A DNA stretch of 64,000 nucleotides from Phoronis australis. Its lineage: Eukaryota > Animalia > Phoronida. The translations under genes were made by a program, and so were the position numbers. The stretch spans positions 167,655 to 231,654 of the forward strand of contig NMRA01000106.1 in assembly GCA_002633005.1 (NCBI GenBank). The letters are read 5' to 3'. The notes beneath the pieces are model-generated. The model ran no database searches, had not been told where the DNA came from, and saw only the letters and a list, made by a program, of their open reading frames with translations. Positions 1 to 46,108 of the stretch are shown in pieces. Position 1 is the stretch's first letter. Each line of letters begins with the position of its first letter.

Positions 1-352
1 GATATTTGAAGATACACCATCTCTATACCCATGGCAGTGGAAGTTAAATAAAGTTTCAATTGCCGTAGAAATGTCAAATTACATCAGTGCACAATATTGT
101 GAACTTCCAACAGCCAATTTCTGCAGGTAATAACAGTGTCAATTATGATATACCCAGCTTCTCAAAAGAAGAGTTATCAACTTGTGTTTTGCGGGCACTT
201 ATAAAGCAGATCTCTTTTAACAGAGGAGAGCTAAATAGGTCAGATGGAGTTGCCATCTGGCAGGCACCAAGAGAGTTAGTGGTAGTGACAACGGACACCT
301 CTACACCGACAGCTAGGCGAGAGTGGTGTGAGTGCGGATAGTACGAGATTAC

Positions 353-489
353 CGTCTATGTTCAACATCATTTTCCGCCAGCTTGGTCGGATGCTCTGGT
401 GGAAGCCGAACCACACTTCACGGCCACCACCAAGTGGATGGTAGTAGTTGTCTGGTGGTGAGAAGAACGATCGACCAACTGGTGTGTAG
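353..489 (-). CDS. AGO2: Argonaute L1 exon copy B (137 nt, phase 2 to 1)
   Basis: Acceptor ttttattctcctcttatctag and donor G|GTAATC. Encodes (N)[45 protein letters not shown] with no stops. Confidence 0.9.
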
Positions 490-3400
490 CTAGATAAGAG
501 GAGAATAAAAAATGCAGGCAATTAATAGCAGGCAACAAGCGATGAAGCTTACCGTCAATGTTCAGCATCATTTTCCAATGGGACGGCCGGACGCTCTGGT
601 GAAAGCCAAACCAGACCTCGCGCCCACCTCCCAGCGGGTGGTCATAGTTGTCCGGAGGTGAGAAGAATGAACGGCCAACAGGGGTGTACCTGGTTGCAGA
701 CGGAAAAAATAACAGAAGTTTTGTGGGTTAGCAGTCACATGACACAGCACCTCACAGCAGGACGCTGCTTAGTCACACAGACGTTCAGCAAATAGGCCAC
801 ACAGAAGAACACCGACGCAGAATTTTAAACGCTTAGTTAATGAATAAAACGAAATTGAAAAGTGAACCCCAATCAGCTTGTTGCCACAAAGATGAATTCC
901 TGGACTGAAAACATACTAGAGAAATGTTACAAAATGTCATGAATTACGATAAAAATTAAGGGACAACAAAGACCGCTTCTTTCCAGTAACTGTGAACTCC
1001 TAACGAAGGGATACTGGGCTCTTGTCATCAACTCAAAATAACAAATCAAGATCAAGGTCATCATTTGTCAATGGAAGATGTGATATTTGCAAGCTTTAAA
1101 AGTCTCTGTTATCGTACCTGTTCAGCAAATATATCACTAAACATCAATCCCTTGTTTTGAATAGTGCTCCAGTAATCCACCAAAAATCTGCTTCATAACC
1201 CATGTGCTTCCAGACAACCATGGAAAGATACCAAGGAAGGTCTATCAAGAACACCAGACACAATAACTTGACACTGTAAAGACTGACTACTACTGCTATT
1301 AATTTGTTTTTGAACGGATGGCCATTTTCATGTACATGAGGGCAAAGGGAGTGTAACAAGATCTGCATATTTACTTCATGCTGGGAAGATGGCGCATGAT
1401 GACGTCGAGAGCCTGTGTAGCATCAAAGGGTATCTGGCTGACATTCCCCTCAAGAGCCTCGTCGAGGGCATACAAGCTGACCTCGGAGACCCATTTGATG
1501 GAAACTTTGAACACGCGGTCCCGTCCTTCGCCAGGCAGCGTCACTTCTAGGTCCACCTAGAGAAAGAATCGACAACTAAATCACATTCAAATGAAAACAG
1601 TTTTAAAGCAATTCCAATGCGTGTTATCCAGCCTGTGCACAGTTTGGTTACTAGAGCATGCAGTCAATGACTTATTTGACGGCAATGACAGTTCCTTATG
1701 GCTTGAGATCAGGCAGGATACATGGGCTTGCCATGGACAGTCATTTTATGCACTGAGCACGGTTTCAAGCTCTAACCAACCACCAGTTGTTGCCTAGCTC
1801 AGTAATATTTTTTAACCAGAGTAAGGAACAAGTTCAGAACAATTTTATATCTAAGTTTGTAATCTTTGGAGACCAATGGCCAGTTATTGCCACTATATGC
1901 GGAACAAGCTCCACCTGGTGGCAAATCTACTCCATGTTTCAAACACAAACTGTTCATGCACTGCACCCTAATAGGAATACACACAGTAACTGTAACAAAT
2001 ACTGCAATCACCAACCTGGATTACATAAAAAATCCAAAAAAAAATTATGCATTACTTTAGTCCACACCTACCTTTTCCTTCTGAATAGGCAGTGGATCCC
2101 TGCTATAAAGGTTCTTGCGTCCGTCGAACACCGGCTTCTGACCAGCAAAAATTTTCTGAGAGTAGCACTGTACCATAGTATCAATGATCTCTCTGGAAAA
2201 AAGCAATAAACATGTGACACAAGTTTATAAGCACCACACAGCCAACATGGAGTTCACCTAGTTGAAATTCATGGTGAAGAGTTAGTGATGCAGACTGTGT
2301 AAGACAGGAGACCAGGTGGCAGTTGACAGCCCACATTTCCTGCTGCATACTATATTACTAATGGGATGTTTTGCCATGATGAGGAAAAAGTCATTTTTAG
2401 TAATCTCCCGTTCTCCCACACTAAAATATGGCTGTTAAAAAAAGGTTACAGTTCTCATCCACATTATGACAACAGGTAAAAATAGCAAAAAAATTGTCTT
2501 CGACTCAGTTAGTTGTGAAAATCAGACTTAAGACAAAGAACAAATTGGCACAAGGTCCATAAAAGGAACCCCATTTGGGCTGTGAGTGACCAAAAACTTA
2601 GATTAGACAGAAGATCACTTGTACTGATTAATTAAACTAAAGATTTATTAAATAACTTGCTCTTGCCTTTATCAACGGATAACTGTATATCCTTAAACAT
2701 GACTACACTTAGTACACTATACTTTTAAATACATAAGACTACAATATACTCAAACTTCGTGACTTCTCACAAAACTTTTAGCATGACTTCACATCCAACT
2801 AAAAACAAGTATATATCCTTGGAATCCTCAAAGACAGAAACAATTTATCAAGAATGTCACATTTTCGTTTATAATAAATCGAATCGACTGACACTTTTGT
2901 GAACTGAATATTGTCATTTTGGCTTTAAACACAAAATTCTAATATAGCCTGAACACAAGATTACTTTATGTTGAGCTATGTATCCTTACATAACTTTATT
3001 ATGCAGTGAACCGTGACACAGATTTCTGATTTACCCCCAAACAACAGAGATAACAGCTATCAAAGTCCCTTTTAAAACAATGCCCCAATCATTGCTGCTA
3101 AAGAGAAACAAATATCCAAAGCTACTAAAAGCATTGATAATGAAAGTGTTTGAAACCCAAGTGAAATTTACCCTGGTCAACCTTGATGAACATTGTAACT
3201 GTGATAGGTATGACAGAGAAAATGCAACAGAAGTACAATACGCACAAAAACCATTTTTCCACTATACATGATTATCAACCTTAACCAATAAGCAACCATC
3301 TAAAGTTGCTTTTCACCCTGGTTAGGCATTTTACTCTAATCAAATTGGTTTCACAATATTCTTAGCCAGTTACCAACTCAAGTCACAGGTAATGTGTACA

Positions 3401-6400: not shown

Positions 6401-9400
6401 TCACTTTCATAATTTAGATTAACAAGAAATCCAAGCAATAATTGTTCATTCAAATAAAGTTGACCTAGTTTCTCGCACTTTGAGAACCAGTTTTCTCCAC
6501 TCAACAATGGCAATCAACCTGGTTACCAAAATGTGGGACTCCTGTAAATAACTATTGCCCAAGGAGTTTTACAGCCTCTATTTCATTTTTATGCGCCCAC
6601 ATATTTATATGTGGTCACATATTGCCGTCATCTCTGTCTGGGCATCCGGCGCAGGCAGCTGTATCTCCTAAACCCCTCACAGGATCTCAATGAGATTTGA
6701 CAGATGTGTTCGATGGATGACAACAAATTTTGGACCTCTCCAACTACCGGTGTGCCATCTAGTGGCACTTTTAATTTTTTAACTTTTCCTCTGTATCTTT
6801 GGAGGTCCTCATCTGATTTTTGTAAACTTTGGCAGTTAGTTATCTATTGGTGAGATGATGCCAGCCTCCCATTTTCGAACGGATTCGATGTACTTTGCAC
6901 CACCTGACCTAGTGCCCATTTTTACCGTCTTAATCCGCCCTTCTATCAACCAAACAGCTCTGGGTAGGATTTTGAAAATTATATGTTTTTACTGTGAAGA
7001 GGGTGGCTGGCGACAATTTTCTGACGACTTCGACAGTGACGCCTCCTACCAGCAGTTTCGTTTTTTTTTGCGCCCATGGCTGTTTCTCCTAAACCGTTTG
7101 CAGGATCTTTTACCAATCGTAGCAGGTATATTTATGTGATATTGACAATGGATGACGATGACTTTCGCATGGATTGGACTATGGTTGCACCCCCTAGTGG
7201 CAATTTCAGTTTCTTACGTTTACCTCTGTATCTTCAAAGGTCCTAAATGGATTTTTTGTAAACTTTGGCAGATAAGCATCTATTGAGATGATGCTATCCT
7301 CCTGTTTTCAGATGTATTCCAGACAATTTGCGCCATCTAGTGGACATTTTTACTGTTTTCAAGTCTGTTTCAACCAGTGAAAGTTGTCATGCATGTTCTT
7401 ACTAAGAGGGGAATGGCTCACGAAGGTTTTCTGACGACTTTAACTACTGTGGTGCCACCTAGAGGCAGTTTTGTTTTTTGTGCCCATGGCTATATCTCCT
7501 AAACCATTGACAGGATCTTTATTATATTTAGCAAGTGTATTTATATGGTGTCCACCTCTCTATCAACCAAACCATTCTAAGGATGATTTTGAAAATTGTC
7601 GTATATGTTCTCCGAGTGATGAGGAGGGTTGACGATGACGACTTTGAATACTGTGGCACCTCCTAGTGGTAGTTTTGTATTGCGCCCATAGCTGAATCTC
7701 CTAAACCTACAGCAGGATCTTTATTAAACTTAGTAAGTGTATTTATATGAAGCTAAGGATAGACGCCAACTTTCAGGCGGACGCTGTGCCCCTTTGTGGC
7801 AATTTCTTTTCTTTCGTTTTCCTGTGTTTCTCTGAAGTTCCTTGACAGATTTTTAAAAAATTTAGTGAATAGCTTTCTATTAAAGAAGTCGTGGCATGTT
7901 CCGTTTTCAGATGGATTGGATGTTTTGCGCCATCTAGTGGCCATTTTTAGGATACAAGTAAACAACTTTAGAAACACACATTTTGTGGTGCATTTGTGGG
8001 TGCATTTCAACGCTCTTGGTTGCTCTTGTTATTTTCACAGTTGTCCTGACCTCAATCTGAAAGCGTTGTTTTTCGGAGACCCTGTGTTTATCAATTAGCC
8101 CAAAACTACAATGACAAAGACACCTAGCGTTTATTAACATCTGAAGTTAAGGTATCCTTAAGGCTCCTCTATAAGAAAGCTGGCTTCTTATAGTAGCTTA
8201 ATCCCATAAGAGTTACTGCAAACACTAGAAGGGATAACTTGACATCCTATTTACCGCACCATACATCGACTTTACGATTGGTATTAGAAGTCAGGCATCC
8301 CCTAAACTTACCGGTTTACTCTCCTTGGACATTTGTCTGGTGTGATTGAGATGTCATAGTGATGGATGATTCCTTTAGGCATGCGTACCATGAAGTGGTT
8401 CGCCCGCAGGGAGATGGTGCGGCCCTCTTGACCAAAGTCTGGTCGGCGGGGACATTCCAAAGGCCGTGGAGCTGCAACTTGAACCACAAAAATATGTAAG
8501 CACTTCAAGCTATTTGGGAAGTAAATCAATGATGTACATGATCCATGAAATTACCTGTTAATGTTGATACATTTCCCAGGGATTTCCAATGAGCTCCAAG
8601 AATATCAGTATGTTATTTTATACGACATACTCTTAAGAAATGGCATGAGCAATAATTCCATTTTAGGCCTCAGAAGTGGGTTTCTCCTATAGTAACATAG
8701 AGGGCCATACCCAAAGTGACAGAAAAGCGGGGCCCTCAATATTAAAGTAGGAAAGGGGCACTTTTGAAGCTCGGAATTGAATTTCCTGCCTAAGTCAATT
8801 TTATACTGTTGAATGACCCTCTTGGAATGAGGTTCAAAAACGTTACATGGAGCTTTTCCAGGTTTGTGCATGTCTTGCACACAGTGTTCTCCACAACAAA
8901 AATTCGACGCAAATATTTTCGTTAGTAGTGATCACTGTTCATTCCCTGACAACATGGTTAAAATAACATTGCTGGCTAGTCAATTATTAAGGTAAGGTAC
9001 CTGACACCATAAAATTATGTTAGAAAAAGAATTTCTTTAGATTTTTTAGCAATAATTTACACTCCATTATTACAAAAATTAGGTCATATATGTATTAGGA
9101 ACTATGGCTGATGTTGGCTACTTCACCCTCATTGTTGATTCTGAGGGCAAAAGTGCCAAGCCAGCCGAAGTTTTAACTTGTCACGCCACTTTTCAAGCTC
9201 GACGCGTATTCTCCAAACTCGACGCAGCAAAATTTAAACTCGTTGCCGCGTCGAGTCAAAACTGGCCATGGAGAACACTGCTTGCACATGGAACATATAA
9301 CATTTATATCATTAAAAGGACCGTTGAAATAAATTATTGTTTTTCAATCAGGCACAATGGCCAGAAATAACAGATTATGAAAGAGTCCCAATGGGACAGT

Positions 9401-24902: not shown

Positions 24903-25715
24903 TCATGCTATAAGAAGTGAAGAACATGTCAGGCAACCATCTGCCTTCGCCAATTCGGTGGTATCTAATGCAATTCGGCGATGTTTGTTGTAGGATTGCA
25001 AAGTCTTCCAACTTTTTGGTGCAACAATTTCACTCTGATGTACGACCGTGCCGTTTATGAACAGAACGTTGCTAGCCACGTTTTCTTCAACCTCAAAAAA
25101 TTCATAAGAAAATTTGGCTTTCTCCTTGAGTTGCCTTTTAAGGTCTTGTCCGCTTTCTGACTTACTAATTGCGATGGTTTCGTGACTGATCATGGACATA
25201 ACAGATTTAAGATGGAGTCCATTTTCAGGGACTACAAGACTCGTCACGTGATATCTCGGAAATGCTTTCGCCAGAGCATCCACGCCTGCTTCGTTTGTGC
25301 GCTTTGAGATCCCAACGAAGATTTCTCGCCCGCTAAACATAACATCGCCACCTTCGATCGTAGCATTAAGGTCATCAACATCGACCACCTTCAAACACAA
25401 AGGATTCTCGCCAAGAAATCGTCGTGCGTCCACCTCCTCGCCAGCACGGCTTTTGGCGCCCGGGCGACAAATCATGGCTGTTTTGTCGATGACCACGGCG
25501 ACGTCTTCAACAAAGACACAGTCGGGGTATTCTTCTTTGGCTGGTACATCAATTATTTGTAATCCAAGGCCTTTCAAAGTTGCCACATAGTTTTCATGTT
25601 GTTTTCTTGCTTTTTCAATAACTATGTCCGATTCGTTGCTAGAACGTATACACATAGTTTTAAAGCTGTTTGGAATGCCTCTGACTACAGCGTAACGGTA
25701 CTGAAACGAAGCCAT
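24903..25715 (-). CDS. DDAH1: N(G),N(G)-dimethylarginine dimethylaminohydrolase (DDAH), about 270 aa, single coding exon
   Basis: Uninterrupted ORF from the ATG at 25715 (MASFQYRYAVVRG) with PDCVFVED, RPGA.SR.GE, GGDVMFSGREIFVGISKRTN, LHLKS (catalytic His) and DGCLTCSS (catalytic Cys). Confidence 0.95.
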   Translation of the reverse strand: MASFQYRYAVVRGIPNSFKTMCIRSSNESDIVIEKARKQHENYVATLKGLGLQIIDVPAKEEYPDCVFVEDVAVVIDKTAMICRPGAKSRAGEEVDARRFLGENPLCLKVVDVDDLNATIEGGDVMFSGREIFVGISKRTNEAGVDALAKAFPRYHVTSLVVPENGLHLKSVMSMISHETIAISKSESGQDLKRQLKEKAKFSYEFFEVEENVASNVLFINGTVVHQSEIVAPKSWKTLQSYNKHRRIALDTTELAKADGCLTCSSLLIA

Positions 25716-25821
25716 CGTATTGAAACCTACGGCCAGTGACATAAGGAGTTGCTGTGGTACAGGGTGTCGGAGCACCTGATATCATAACCTCCTGCACGGA
25801 CGCTCATTACCAGCAATACGT

Positions 25822-31877: not shown

Positions 31878-32612
31878 ACCTGTGGCCGCATAAAGAAGGA
31901 TTCTACACTAACCTTTTATGAGGCATTCAATTTCAGAAGCCAAACACGTTCTCAACATTTCAATTTATTTCAGCCAGTATTTCATTACAGTGAAGACATC
32001 GCTAATGAAATAATTGTGTTGTGCAACTTAGATCAACTTTCACGCTAGGAAGGGTGGACAGCAACATGGTTTTCAAGGTTGATGTAGTTGAGAATCATTG
32101 TTCAACTTCAATTAGATACCATTGAACAATCTGGTTTCCTAGTGAAAATTGAAATTTCCTAATGAAAATTGAATATCGTAAAGAGTCAGTTTGCACAATG
32201 TTTTGTGCATTTTCATCAATGTGATTGACCTGACTGTTCATTTTTTCATCCAGAAGCCTCTGGTACTATGGCTACATTGTCTGGGACAGTTTCTGTACAA
32301 CTAATCTGCTTACAAATCTCACTTGAGCAAAAGTACAAGGTCTCTTACAATGTACACACAACTAATAGCTACTGAGATAATTAGTATGAATTATTACTAA
32401 ACTGTGATCCGCTCATAATTACTTGGATAAAAGTTGTTTTCATCAATTCTGAAGTGGGAGTATAAGAACAAAGCTTTTGCATTAAGTTTTGAAGCCACTT
32501 CCATGAAACAGACCACAGGTCGCCCGCAACAATTTTGCATTTTGTTCCTGGCTGAGGTGTTTGTTTTATTCCGTTTTCAGATTTACATCATTACCATTCA
32601 GCCCACTTTAAC

Positions 32613-35600
32613 ATGTTCCCTAGACAGAGAGACCGGCCTCGTCATGGCAGTTTTCGCTCACCTCTGGCTTACCGCAACAGGACAGTGTCGGAGAATGATG
32701 GGAAAGCCCATGGATATGATGCTTGTTTCCTTAAAGAGCTGGATCAGAAACACACATGTCCTGTCTGCTTGACTGCCATGAACGATCCTGTGCAAACAAA
32801 GTGTGGTCACCGATTTTGCTGTAGCTGTCTACGGAGAGTCTGCGGGTTAATTTAATTAGCATTTTGCAGTATTTGTATTCATAGGCCATTCCATATTTTC
32901 TAGAATGTCCTGAGTCTCATAAAAGTTTGCCAATGTGACAAGCTGAGCATTCAGTTACGGGAAATTGGACCAATGCCCCTACTTCTGTGACAGTCAAAAA
33001 CACAATCCTCCAATAACAAACTTTTATGCCAGGGGGCCTTAATATTTTTGAGTGTGCCTTGTATGCAAATGTTTAGGTGAATTCTGCTGCTATGCTCTGA
33101 AGCCCCCTGAAGGATAAATATAACATTTGATGCAGAGCATGTTTCTGTTAGGGAAGGAGATTTTTAGATACCTGTACTCCTTCTTAATCATTGTTGAATT
33201 CTCGAGGTTTGAAAAACAGCTTTTTGATCTTGGGGAAAGTTAATAATTAAATGTTTTAAAGTATGATAAGCATAACATGCTGTGAATTACAAACTCATCA
33301 GTGGTCAATTCACAGTTGTATTCAAATGCCATCTTCACACATTGAAACTTTTTGGAATAATTCTGTTGAACTAATCAGTTCTGGTACACTTGGCTTAAGA
33401 CAGCTTGCTGATAGTCAATAAATGCACATTGTTATTTGTAATCTTTGCTACCAGTCATGGTTATAGCAAAAGAATGAACTGTTTTTGGCGCTTTCTCAAA
33501 GAGCGTTTAGTTGCCATGTTTAAATGGTGCTTGTTGAGCAAAATACCGCTGTCTCCAGATTTGTAGTTGTCTTTCCAGTGTCTAGTCCGATAGATCAAGT
33601 TTGCTAACTGTGAGCCTTTTTGTCCTATATCACTGATCAATTGACCTATCACAAGCTCCACTCCCTTGCAAAGTTTTGACAAACAAACAATAACTTACCC
33701 GGCAACGTGTTGTTTGTCTGATAAAGTGGCGGTTTGGAAACAAACGTGTGTCAAGAATGCTGCCTTCTCAGTGGTCAGTTAAGCCACATATTTGTTGTTG
33801 TATATTACTCTACCACTCTACCAAGTTGTTGAACTATTTCAGAAGCAGGCGATACTTCAAATGTCCGGTGGACAACACATGGCTGGATTCTCAAGTTGAT
33901 GTGAGTGATAAAAACACACAGGTGCTAGTAATTGATACAAGGGGTCCAGACCTAAATGTACACCTTGGGTACCTTTCATACAAATAGCCTGAAAAGTGCA
34001 AGGTGCCCCTAAATGTATTCACACTTCAATTGACAGGGACTGTATTGGTTTTTTGTCTTTGGAACAGGATTTCAGATTTAACTTCATAAGAGGTGAACCA
34101 AAATGTATACATTGTTTATTAAACTTAGTATAAAGAAGATAAATTGTCTTTGCACTTTTTTTGTTGTTTTCGAGTTTCTGGTAGCATTGCACTATAAATT
34201 TCATTCTTCGAAATTGAGTCGTTTGTTTGCCATCCCAGTGCATTTACAGAGCATGCTCCTACTTTCACAAAGATGTGTAACGTTGCATGCGATAGACCCA
34301 GATTGTGGATTCTGATCCATCAGAACTGAATTTGACGTAGCCAAAATAGCGAATTATGCAATTTTTGTCTTGATCATGGTGTTGTGCCTCATTCAATTAC
34401 ACGTAGTAAACATCTGTGGTGTCAAGTTTCTCCACAAAGCAGTTTACAAACATTTCGCTGTTTCTGTGACCTTCAATCTTCAAATTAATGGGACTCCTCT
34501 CATAGATAGCTTTTCTCATTTAAAGTTGCTGGAACGTTCTTCCTTAGACGAAGGCAGAGACACCTTCATTGCATTGTGAAAACAATAATTTGAAATTTAA
34601 AGTGCACAGCCATTAACAAAACTGGAGATCTGAGAAGTATGTAAATTTTCTTCCACTGAGAGATTGCAGGCTCAAAACCTGAAGAGTTGATGCCAGTCAA
34701 GGTCAATCGTGAGCAAAACTGCTCACTCATCTCGGGAGAGTACATGGCACTGAACTACCGCTATATGAGTAATTTTGGGACACCTGGCATAAAAGCTATT
34801 GGAAAATTTAAAAAATAGGGTAGAAATTCATGTAAAAAACATGTATTGTTATGATTATTTGGTTTATTAAGAGCTTGTGTATGCATTTACGCCTGCTGAT
34901 CTCTTGTTCTCTCTTTCTTCAAACTTTTTTCTTTGCTTGTGTGGTGTTTTCCTTTCTCATGTACATACTTTTCCTCTTGAAAAATCTTCAATTTTCTCAC
35001 AGATGTGTTTACTATAATTACAAACAAAGACATTTGTCTGTGGAAGAGTAAATGGGAAGAGTATTTCATTTGGGGATCAATGTTGGTAGTGTACTCTGTT
35101 TCAAAATTCTGGTATTTGTTTTACTGCTTAAAAGTGTGAAAGAAAACATTTTGTAACTGAGAAGCTGTTCAGCGACATCTTCCTTTAACTGAATCATTGG
35201 TGTCATGAGTAAACCTGGTAATAGTTCATCAAGTGCAGTTGCAACATTCAAGCTCTAAGAACACAGACCGTAATCGTCAGACTTAAAATCTGAATGTAAA
35301 TCTCTGCAGTCACCACTCATGTATTATGGAAGTATATTACAGATGTCATGTGCATAGGTAATTATACAGAGATGGTGGTCGAATGCTTGTAGTCTGTGGT
35401 GCCATCTGTTATGTTGTCAATAATTATCATATGCTCAGTTTTAGGCATTGTTTTCTCTATAACATTTAAAAGAGAATGTAGTATCACAGTCAAACTGTAG
35501 ATTTCCTAATCAGTTTCGTTGACAGTTTTGTTAACAGCTAGTTCAGTAATATTTATGTTAGAGTTTTCATTACGTCAACAGAACACTGTTGGAACAACTT

Positions 35601-38600: not shown

Positions 38601-41600
38601 GTTCTTCAGCAGAGCTGCTGTTCTGGATAATTTCGGGTATCCATCATAACGTCGTATTGTCGTGATGAACCGTCTGGAGTTGGCAGGCGGACAACTCTGG
38701 ATGGTCATAAAACCTTTCCTCTCATTTACTCTTTATTGTACTTTAATCCGACAGTGTTAACATAGGAGTAGCCTGAACAATTAATACGTTCGATTTCATT
38801 TTTTGCCCCTTTTTAGACAGAAACAGTACCAGTGATAATTATATTGTGTCCAGTTTATATACTCCCTGGAGCCCCTAAGTTCGCTTCACAATCATAATGT
38901 CGTTATGATTGCAGCCCTTATGCTAATGGTGGGGGATATGCGTTGAGCAGTCTTGGAGAAGTTTTAACATCAAGCAATTTTGTTGTTATTTACCATTCCC
39001 AGTAGTCAGCGCATGTACTCGGGATATTTGGCTTTTTTGAGTGCATCAAAATCTGTATCTATAAATATAAGTTTAACTACTCTGGTGCCCCCTAGTGGCA
39101 ATTTTGTTTTTGCATTCATGGTTGCGATTGGCAGATGTGTTTTTTTGGAGATGGCAACGCATGAAGAAGAGTTTCTGACCAGTCCGACTACAGTTGTGCC
39201 CCCTCGTGGTAATTGTTCTCACAACACGAGCAGATAGTAGCCTATTCATATCTGTGGTAGTGTGTTTTCCGTGGATAAGCCCACCCGATGAAATGCCCGT
39301 GGGTGTTTATTCTGAAAATTATGCCAAGTAAGCGCCCAAGGGCATTTATTTGGTGTGACAACTTCTAGTGTCAAGTGTGTAGATGTTGGGGTGTTTATTC
39401 GGAAAAATTTCTCTTAAAAGCCCTCTCAGCATCAACTTTTAGCCACAAATTCAGTTTTGTGGTGCATTTGCCATTGATAAAAACGAACAAACGGTGTTGT
39501 GCAGTTTATTAACTGAAAATTAAAAATGCACAGTTTTATGCAAAAAATAACTATTTTCTTATCAGCTGAGGCTATGACTCTCCGTTTACATATCCCCCTT
39601 TCCGAATAAACATCAAGGCATTTATATGGTGTTACTGAAATGCCTGCCACGCCCATGGGCTTACCTAAGGAAAATCCCAGTCATAATTTGTTAGTTGTTG
39701 TCCCTAAAGAATTGTTTGGTTTTCAGAAACACCAGTTACTGCAGTGCATGAAGTTTCCAGTAAACTGTGCTGTATGTGGTCAGACGGAGATCATGAGGGA
39801 AGACATCCCGAAACATATCGACATGGTTAATGGCGATTGTCCACTAGTTGTCACCACTTGTCCACTCAGTGCTCTTGGATGCACATTTCAAGTGAGATGG
39901 TCTTGAAGTCATTCTTTTATTGCTGCGAGGCTAGTTAATCCCCTACGTACGAAAATTAAGCTTTCCGAACGTTTCAGATTTTTGTTTAAGGTCTTTTAAC
40001 CTGAGAGCGTAACTGTCAAAAGTAATTTTAGTAGAGTGTTGGCGTCATCATTTTTGTCATTGCAGCCCATGGGCTTAATGGCCTTGAAAAAACCCAGACC
40101 TTTTTGCAGCTATGAAAATTTAGAAATATAATTTGAAATTTTCTTGTGAAAACATTAACTAACGTTTGTGGAAATTATGGCGATCCCAGTAAAAATCAAG
40201 ATTTTTTAGAAAATTGCTGACAAATGGTATTTATTTTTGTGCTGGTAATAAGGTTCTGTGATCACCAAGTCTCATAAAAACATAGTTTTATGTGGCAACG
40301 AATGTAGCCTTACATGTAGACATAAGCTTTGTCTCATTGATATTTCTGTCAGGACAAGCGAAAAAATATGCCAGCTCACCACAGTTCATCTGCTCTTCAC
40401 CACATGTTGTTGATGGTGAATAAGCTTGCTGAGCAGGACAGGGTCATATCCCAGCAGGAGCACAAGTTGAGCAGTCAGGGGCAAGCTCTGGTCTTTGCAA
40501 AGGAGAATATTAAGAACCTGGTCAAAGAGTGTGATAGCCTTAAAAAGTGAGTTATCTGTGTGTTGAGCTAGTTATGTATTGAACTTTTTGACTGAAATGA
40601 AATGTTCAAACTCTTGGGTATACTCTGGGTATCCAAGATTTGCCAGTGTCACTGTTGCAAAATGTTAACATTCAGAGACATAGTAAGTATCGCGCTTTAT
40701 CGATAAGTCTGTGCTTTTAGACAAATATATGTACAAAATTGCCGAATTCAACTCTGTGAAAGTATATATTTTCTGAAAGTAGAAACTAGGATTTTATTTT
40801 GGTTTCATACCAACTGAAGCTACAACCACTTGGATCTCACAATCGTGTCTTTTTAGAAAAATAAGCCCAAAATGTGCAGTCTTTGCCAAATAATACCATG
40901 AATAGCTTAAACGAGCTAAACTTAGTTTGATATAAATGCCCAAGATAACATCTCAAAAATGCTGTTACACTTTCTAATTTATCACTTCATTTTCTTTGAA
41001 TTTATGCAATTTTTGAATAATTTTCATAGAAATCATTGAATTCCTGTTTTTGTATCCCCTCATTCAAACGTAGAGTAATTAAAAATCATTCTTAACAGAC
41101 TTTTGGAGAACAGTGCACCAAAGTTAATTCCTATGACTCCAATCCACCATATGATGTTCTGAAGTTTGCCAAATTTGACTATTTTCTAGGTGCTTACATA
41201 ACCTTAATCTTCTTTTGGTGACCTATCTGCAGCTGGTTCTCTCTTTTACTGGTGCATCATTGGTACCTAACCCCCCTGAACAATAAAAGCATATGCAGTT
41301 TTTTTGTATCAAAAATTAAATTTTGTGTTTTGAAGGAGGCAGGGGTCTCAATAATTGTCATGTAACTCACCTAAAGAGTTACTCACGCTTGACAATTTAG
41401 CAGATTTCGTCCGGAATTTTCAACATTGCTCTGTGCTGTTGAGGATTGATGACAACACATTATTTCAGTTAAATACTTTTCTGCCACCTGCTGGCATGAT
41501 GTCAAAAAATGAACACAAATGAAACAGTAACGTAACATTTTGCAGATAATGGTGTATGTCATTTCTGCTGTGGATTATGGCCTTGACATTGTTTTTGCAT

Positions 41601-45137: not shown

Positions 45138-46108
45138 TGATGGGTGTGATCTACAAAACCACAAGTATGGGAAAGACTCCATATTGCCCGACCTGCTGGC
45201 TGATGAAGACTTCTCTTCTGGTAAGAGCAGTGGCTTGAATTGATTAGGCCTATAATTTTAACACGTGTTGATGCTTGAAAAGTTCTATTTATTTGATTGT
45301 TCAGGATTTGCTATGAAGTGACTGTTCGGTTCTTAATGACAATAAGCTTATTTGTTCTTCGACTTGTTTTACAGTGGATCTTGCGCAAGACTACCTGGGA
45401 CAGAGTGAATGGATGACCACGTTCACTGATGTATTCAATGTCCCTGTAGATCCTGTTGAAGAGATCTTACAGCAGGCGGAGCGTATGGAGGTCCAGCCCG
45501 AGACCGTGAACAAGTACCAGCTGTCCGATGACCAAGAAAGGATCATACAAGAAATCCTGCATGAACCGGAAAGGAGCCCATCTCCTGTCGATGAGGTTCC
45601 TGCCTTGATCAGTTTTTCGGACGCATTGGCAGATCAGTTCACGCCTCTTACTCCACCTCTTTCTCCTGATGACATAGAGAGTATTCTCTCTGACCCCTCG
45701 AGTCCTTTGTCTGATGCATCAGACATAAGCTCGAGTGTCCTTGACGATCCCGACTGGAGTCCACATGGCTCAGACTCTCCGACCAAAGTGGTCAGGTCTT
45801 ACGTAAAACTGAGGCCTAAACCCTATGAGAAAACGCCTGTATTACAACATGAAGGTAGAGTGTCTGCCTCTAAAAACAAAAAGGAGAGAAAGCGTGAACA
45901 AAACAAAAATGCTGCTATAAGATATCGGGAAAAGAAACGAGCAGAGTCGGAGGTAATAGTTAGCGAAGAGAGAGCGCTCGATGAAAAGAACAAATCTTTG
46001 AAAAAGAAAGTGGAGTCGATGACCAATGAAATCGCTTACCTCAAGGACTTGTTGAAAGAGGTCTACAGGGCCAAGGGACTTAAACTGGACCAAAAACTTC
46101 TCCCTTGA
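45073..46108 (+). CDS. ATF4: ATF4/ATF5-family bZIP transcription factor, about 293 aa
   Basis: Exons 45073-45220 (G|GTAAGA) and 45375-46108 (tttacag|). Acidic N-terminus, EWM motif, RPKPYE, basic region KKERKREQNKNAAIRYREKKRAE and zipper ending NEIAYLKDLL. The uORF layout is characteristic. Confidence 0.93.

Follow-up and report, generated by a model that had tools for sequence, protein, structure and literature searches.

Two alternative copies of the L1-linker exon in an Argonaute gene of Phoronis australis

A duplicated L1 exon in an Argonaute gene

The window analysed here, a 64,000-nt stretch of Phoronis australis contig NMRA01000106.1, holds part of an Argonaute gene on the minus strand. 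The N domain starts in an exon at 8312..8478 (-), the 3' end of which matches loose read ends at 2193, continues in an exon at 2072..2192 (-), and ends in an exon at 1375..1556 (-), where the Pfam ArgoN match is also completed. The donor of this last exon, common to both of the copies that follow, feeds two exons of 137 nt: copy A at 553..689 (-), of canonical type (...YDHP...VRPSHWK), and copy B at 353..489 (-), of derived type (...YYHP...IRPSWRK). Each is flanked by AG/GT and reached by RNA junctions. Both match Pfam ArgoL1 and align to human AGO2 174-218, which bears out the original prediction that the exon encodes the L1 linker. The N domain and L1 were closest to AGO1-type proteins, and on this portion the gene falls within the miRNA class (AGO clade).

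Two other segments may belong to the N-terminus of this Argonaute: a 72-nt Gln-rich exon-like segment with AG/GT at 9997-9926 (-) and a possible first exon at about 11860-11700 (-). An intronic repeat-like element at about 1725-1855 attracts reads that originate at other loci, on either strand. Elsewhere in the window, where 25 of 112 ORFs were scanned and four had hits, we observed an amidinotransferase/DDAH-like coding stretch (24903-25781, -), neighboring RING and TRAF zinc finger coding stretches (32556-32855 and 39610-39906, +), and a neighboring bZIP coding stretch (45317-46108, +).

Recomputation reproduced all the exon figures given beforehand: two exons of 137 nt, a spacing of 200 nt, AG/GT sites, the codon counts, and a 63-nt intron between the copies (490..552, -), across which no RNA joint was listed. 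A and B are identical at 106 of 137 nucleotides. Among their 45 whole codons, 18 are the same, 23 differ synonymously, and four differ non-synonymously (D/Y, V/I, H/W, and W/R); the junction codon differs as well (K/N). Identity in the flanks is 24/60 and 17/60, leaving the likeness confined to the exon and its splice sites. In length, frame, splice sites, and homology, the pair agrees with the structural criteria for homologous mutually exclusive exons (PMC5740500). A third L1 copy was not found within the 64-kb window.

The pattern of substitution supports the proposal of an old duplication under purifying selection. Nei-Gojobori comparison of A with B gave a pS of 0.71 against a pN of 0.075 (Fisher p 6e-12), 22 of 30 differences fell at third codon positions, and 15 of 19 fourfold sites had diverged. 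In a tree, the change falls on copy B, which has an end branch of 0.034 as opposed to 0 for A. Both proteins are very probably made and selected.

Splicing of the two copies

RNA data on window positions 1-2400 comprised one contig set from 2015 (X1) and three stranded raw RNA-seq runs (X2-X4) from a single 2026 study, with 18-19% of each run read. A splice joint was listed when seen in 3 reads from 2 starts. The donor at 1375 joined copy A in 5, 5, and 13 reads of the three raw runs and, with A skipped, joined copy B in 5, 8, and 17 reads. The contig set also joined 1375 to copy A, with 18 letters on the A side. Loose ends at the 3' end of copy B numbered 10, 6, and 31 reads in the three raw runs; among the loose ends listed, those at the 3' end of copy A amounted to 6 reads in X4. 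Loose ends from A and B share one consensus, VSATAFYKGQ, which is the next Argonaute exon, beyond the window. No A-to-B joint (553-489) was among those listed for the three raw runs and the contig set at the 3-read threshold.

Thus, the junctions predicted for either-or splicing (1375 to 689, 1375 to 489, and 553 or 353 to the next exon) revealed both forms, and both single-inclusion forms occurred in all three raw runs. Judged by the standard of PMC5740500, each copy has at least three bridging junction reads, the downstream side of A being seen as loose ends. The same source excludes pairs that are joined unless joining shifts the frame; here no 553-489 joint was listed, and one would frameshift. 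A and B are almost certainly mutually exclusive exons.

Copy B is no minor leak, being used about as often as A or more. It accounted for 30 of 53 upstream junction reads in total and 50-62% per run, and these A/B ratios were alike across the three runs (p=0.86). By exon-bin depth its share was 0.55-0.83, and depth ratios did differ among runs. No other letter was listed in RNA reads at the W/R codons of the copies. The sole variant listed inside copy B, at position 474 (12 of 26 reads in X4), leaves the amino acid unchanged.

We also considered whether the pair could stem from collapsed paralogs or haplotypes, or include a dead pseudo-exon. In reads, the two copies are joined from one upstream exon and continue into one shared downstream exon, 31 of 137 nucleotides differ between copies whose flanks are unrelated, and the bins between and around the copies also hold a low depth of reads. 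Because the likeness ends at the splice sites and RNA reads cover both copies, chance or mis-assembly can be set aside, as the original prediction had argued. This reading is close to refuted, and we regard it as extremely improbable.

A separate variant lies in the upstream exon at 2192-2072. At position 2116, an A-to-G change in mRNA sense turns a Lys codon into Glu at its first base (K to E in FDGRKNLY). The change is present in the X1 contig and in 11 of 16, 12 of 12, and 18 of 29 reads of the raw runs. Glu was absent from the equivalent motif site among the homologs compared (K, S, N, R, A, and Q). These ratios fit a common SNP, with A-to-I recoding as a candidate alternative.

The intron between A and B holds the branch-like sequence CTATTAAT at intron nt 25-32. 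A motif scan predicted the branch-like TATTAAT within 490..552, with adenines 30-31 nt from the donor of A, refining the distance of about 30 nt proposed originally. Adenines at intron nt 27-47 all lie <50 nt from this donor, the best motif being that at 30-31. Copy A is preceded at about 39 nt by a consensus-like predicted branch motif, TGCTAAC (725..732, approximate, -; motif scan). A steric threshold of about 50 nt between donor and branch point has been described (PMC7969005, PMC5740500), and the position of the predicted motif makes steric blocking of A-to-B joining plausible. With the branch-like site of B so near to the donor of A, such joining would likely be hindered.

The reading frame offers a second safeguard. 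When A and B are joined, the frame hits a stop inside B, 15 nt before its end, and more exons follow. A transcript with both copies, or with both skipped, would frameshift and then be cleared by NMD, and NMD alone would also remove A+B transcripts. As the A+B frame stops before the end of B with further exons to come, the lack of A+B reads fits steric blocking and NMD equally and cannot separate them.

Comparison with known systems places the pair among familiar arrangements. It resembles OGDH 4a/4b, rat Tpm1 intron 2 (PMC7969005), and the human mutually exclusive exon atlas (PMC5740500) in equal length, phase, and homology, in junction reads that bridge each copy, and in a branch-like site <50 nt from the donor. 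Unlike OGDH and Tpm1 (PMC7969005), the whole intron here is 63 nt and the predicted branch-like site stands at an ordinary distance from the acceptor rather than being distant. C. elegans clusters likewise have exons that are not multiples of three, and 14 of 19 such clusters there rely on NMD against double inclusion (PMC4165533). The steric cases in C. elegans differ in having introns <40 nt; introns as short as about 40 nt are spliced there, a limit that an intron of 63 nt would clear (PMC4165533).

An inverted-repeat search yielded a candidate docking element at 1293..1304 (-), a perfect 12-nt complement of 520-531. The latter segment covers the branch-like site of B, and its pairing with 1304-1293 would loop out A. 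A second candidate element (875..884, -, bounds approximate to 1 nt) is a perfect 10-nt complement of 531-540. The 1304-1293 helix was a post hoc choice among 23 inverted repeats. Its 12-nt complement length was reached by 6 and 7 of 3000 shuffles, while in real sequence a 12-nt match in the same geometry occurred at 9 of 916 places and the summed length of both helices was matched at 2 of 916. Predicted pairing probability was 0.19-1.0 for the first helix (1304-1293), depending on the folded region, and 0.04-0.06 for the second (884-875). Local folding of 440-600 was no better than that of shuffles (z -0.33).

The arrangement is like the docker/selector system of Dscam1 exon 6 (PMC6071210) in having, some 70 nt downstream of the shared donor, an element that complements the intron just before B. 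It is unlike that system in that only B has a strong match; a competing selector for copy A was rejected, its matches of 7-9 bp being no better than chance (158 of 200 shuffles did as well). As a lead only, pairing at 1304-1293 could favor B, by looping out A, or favor A, by masking the branch point of B. This 12-bp pairing of the upstream intron onto the branch region of B may thereby bias the choice between copies.

Relatives and comparable Argonaute isoforms

We looked for copy B in other lineages by its WRK motif. The motif was absent from 352 motif hits in homologous proteins, from 96 short proteins (88 of which matched the motif), and from metagenome contigs in an exact pattern scan. Neither a second L1 copy nor WRK was found in 80 loci, each with one L1 segment, in a scan that covered 36 of 64 parts and kept 80 of 137 relatives. 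An exon with the same boundaries was present in 18 of the 80 loci, five of which hold both neighboring exons with a single copy between. The closest relatives sampled (nemertean, mollusc, and annelid AGO) share 81-85% identity over about 200 aa. A tree containing no invertebrate deuterostome excluded the gene from the ecdysozoan clade without settling its place among lophotrochozoans. Since these surveys returned neither WRK nor a second copy, the duplication looks lineage-restricted when set against sampled homologs whose nearest members are 81-85% identical. The original description of the duplication as ancient holds only in the sense of near-saturated synonymous sites; no relative with copy B was found to back it by conservation.

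Several apparent pairs were rejected. Proteins with two L1 segments proved to be fused vertebrate AGO1/3/4 neighbors or a duplicated ant gene model, and not exon pairs. An odd oyster L1 turned out not to mark an isoform, since each of the 15 proteins listed in its cluster carries it. Two L1 types met in a single cluster (P0213, P0376-P0380) are each continuous with the N exon, and their tails differ; from their sequences they look like separate genes or species, not isoforms. 'DUP' flags in 4 of the 80 loci were overlapping alignment ends.

Other Argonautes do show exchange of segments. In RefSeq isoforms from Lineus, Gigantopelta, Haliotis, Patella, and Priapulus, as here, one block is swapped at equal length; these are automatic annotations known from proteins, in clusters that list at most 15 members. 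Unlike the Phoronis pair, the blocks lie in L2 (all five genera), PIWI (Haliotis), or the C-terminus (Gigantopelta), and the listed isoforms of each genus do not differ in L1. No equal-length swap block was present among the listed hemipteran or collembolan members. In the nemertean, the three gastropod genera, and the priapulid, the L2 block directly follows TARSAPDR (P0155/P0259, P0149/P0265, P0150/P0279, P0336/P0334, and P0342/P0343). It may represent a mutually exclusive pair of ancient protostome origin, adjacent to helix-7. The Haliotis PIWI block (P0150/P0270, residues 652-675) has GAS vs GAD in the VFVGA/IFLGA strand, a difference that presumably falls at the catalytic Asp. The C-terminal block of Gigantopelta (P0149/P0261) spans residues 866-887.

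The original prediction knew of no description of such a switch for a miRNA-class Argonaute. The swap blocks in five genera show that exchange of segments in this class is not confined to the present gene; none of them is in L1. Shrimp Ago1A/B/C, the nearest published case found, offer a further likeness, with one miRNA-class Ago gene giving several splice forms, which differ in antiviral roles (PMC3510085). They arise there through 9-nt and 81-nt insertions (N-terminus and PIWI) and not by a duplicated-exon swap (PMC3510085). 'Argonaute', 'AGO1', and 'AGO2' are absent from the main text of PMC5740500, as distinct from its datasets, and Argonaute and alg-1 from the main text of PMC4165533. Among accessible papers, judged from titles and abstract openings, our literature search met none on duplicate exons in Argonaute. 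Mutually exclusive splicing is itself familiar, and Argonaute genes show exon swapping repeatedly; the distinctive point here is the loss, from the abundant copy, of a Trp that is almost invariant.

Residue differences and possible consequences

In AGO2 numbering, the A/B changes are K/N173, D/Y189, V/I206, H/W210, and W/R211. For comparison, 399 of 476 proteins supplied ungapped segments, amounting to 82 distinct sequences. N173, Y189, and I206 occur in 5, 38, and 6 of the 82 segments; being common in single-copy homologs, these changes may be neutral. D vs Y at 189 is also what distinguishes human AGO3 (YDHP) from AGO1 (YYHP) in the same segment, although those are separate genes and both keep the Trp. 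Position 211 is Trp in 79 of the 82 segments and Arg in none. An AlphaFold model of a Lineus homolog puts the H/W pair in a low-confidence turn between strands 238-244 and 251-260; with a mean pLDDT of 45.6, and <50 across L1, the model carries little weight.

A link to human disease variants had also been suggested. The exon is indeed the L1 linker, and L1 variants in human AGO2 change target dwell time and strand choice (PMC12529666, PMC7670403); AGO2 L192P alters dwell time, fidelity, and strand choice (PMC12529666). L192 is at the helix-7 interface, and F182, G201, and H203 are at the L1 hinge (PMC7670403). All four of these disease residues, the ones checked, are identical in copies A and B, making the link weaker than implied. 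The main text of PMC13501643 has no mention, in the forms searched, of positions 189, 206, 210, and 211, and searches on W211 in the literature yielded nothing usable. With the four disease residues unchanged and that text silent on the changed positions, any functional divergence of B from A is something we infer.

The best explanation, which we hold with moderate confidence, is that duplication of the L1 exon gave two alternative exons, both selected, with a likely slight difference in guide/target handling. A tandem duplication of the 137-nt exon would have placed two alternatives in a miRNA-class Argonaute gene, each mRNA read carries one copy, and purifying selection acts on both. By position in human AGO2, three residues would separate the D/Y change from L192, at the L1/helix-7 interface, and HW-to-WR would fall close to the predicted turn of the L1 hairpin. 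From these two positions, isoform B would most likely shift loading, unwinding, or target-release kinetics and not act as a RISC off-switch. The chances that the isoforms differ measurably in function are about even.

The two exons might instead be redundant, with splicing random, both copies obliged to work, and WR a tolerated lineage-specific rearrangement. Such redundancy, which we consider possible but doubtful, explains the low pN without any benefit and fits the similar upstream-junction ratios in three runs, the use of residues found elsewhere in most changes, and the lack of a second L1 copy in the 80 loci or isoform sets examined. However, a splice-site mutation easily loses a spare copy, yet both lasted while 15 of 19 fourfold sites diverged, and with Trp retained in 79 of 82 segments, its loss would probably have an effect.

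The same substitution raises the question of whether copy B is a weakened or less stable Argonaute, with the A/B choice then determining how much active RISC is present. In favor of this reading are the W-to-R change at an almost invariant site, placement of that change on B by the tree (0.034 vs 0), and impairment of AGO2 by L1-base variants (PMC7670403). It is nonetheless improbable: B makes up half or more of transcripts in all three runs, 41 other whole codons keep the residues of A despite saturated synonymous change, and a Trp is still present one residue away. We therefore retain the explanation of two selected alternatives, under which a single gene likely yields two silencing proteins that differ subtly.

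In invertebrates, miRNA silencing is commonly attributed to a single Argonaute protein. The gene described here supplies a natural variant of the L1 hinge region that is abundant and confirmed in RNA; in human AGO2, single substitutions in this region alter target dwell time and strand choice. The five-residue difference between A and B would be easy to transplant into a tractable Argonaute. Taken with the RefSeq blocks of five genera, the pair poses a testable question: does splicing supply in invertebrates the variety of RISC that four genes provide in vertebrates? Tentatively, and as a conjecture more likely to fail than to hold, invertebrates with a single miRNA Argonaute may vary their RISC by swapping exons in combination (in L1 here, and in L2, PIWI, and the C-terminus elsewhere). 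In this gene, RNA pairing onto the branch point of B would set the ratio of canonical and W-to-R L1 isoforms with different loading or target-release kinetics. If true, combinatorial exon swapping would be the splicing counterpart of the vertebrate AGO1-4 paralogs.
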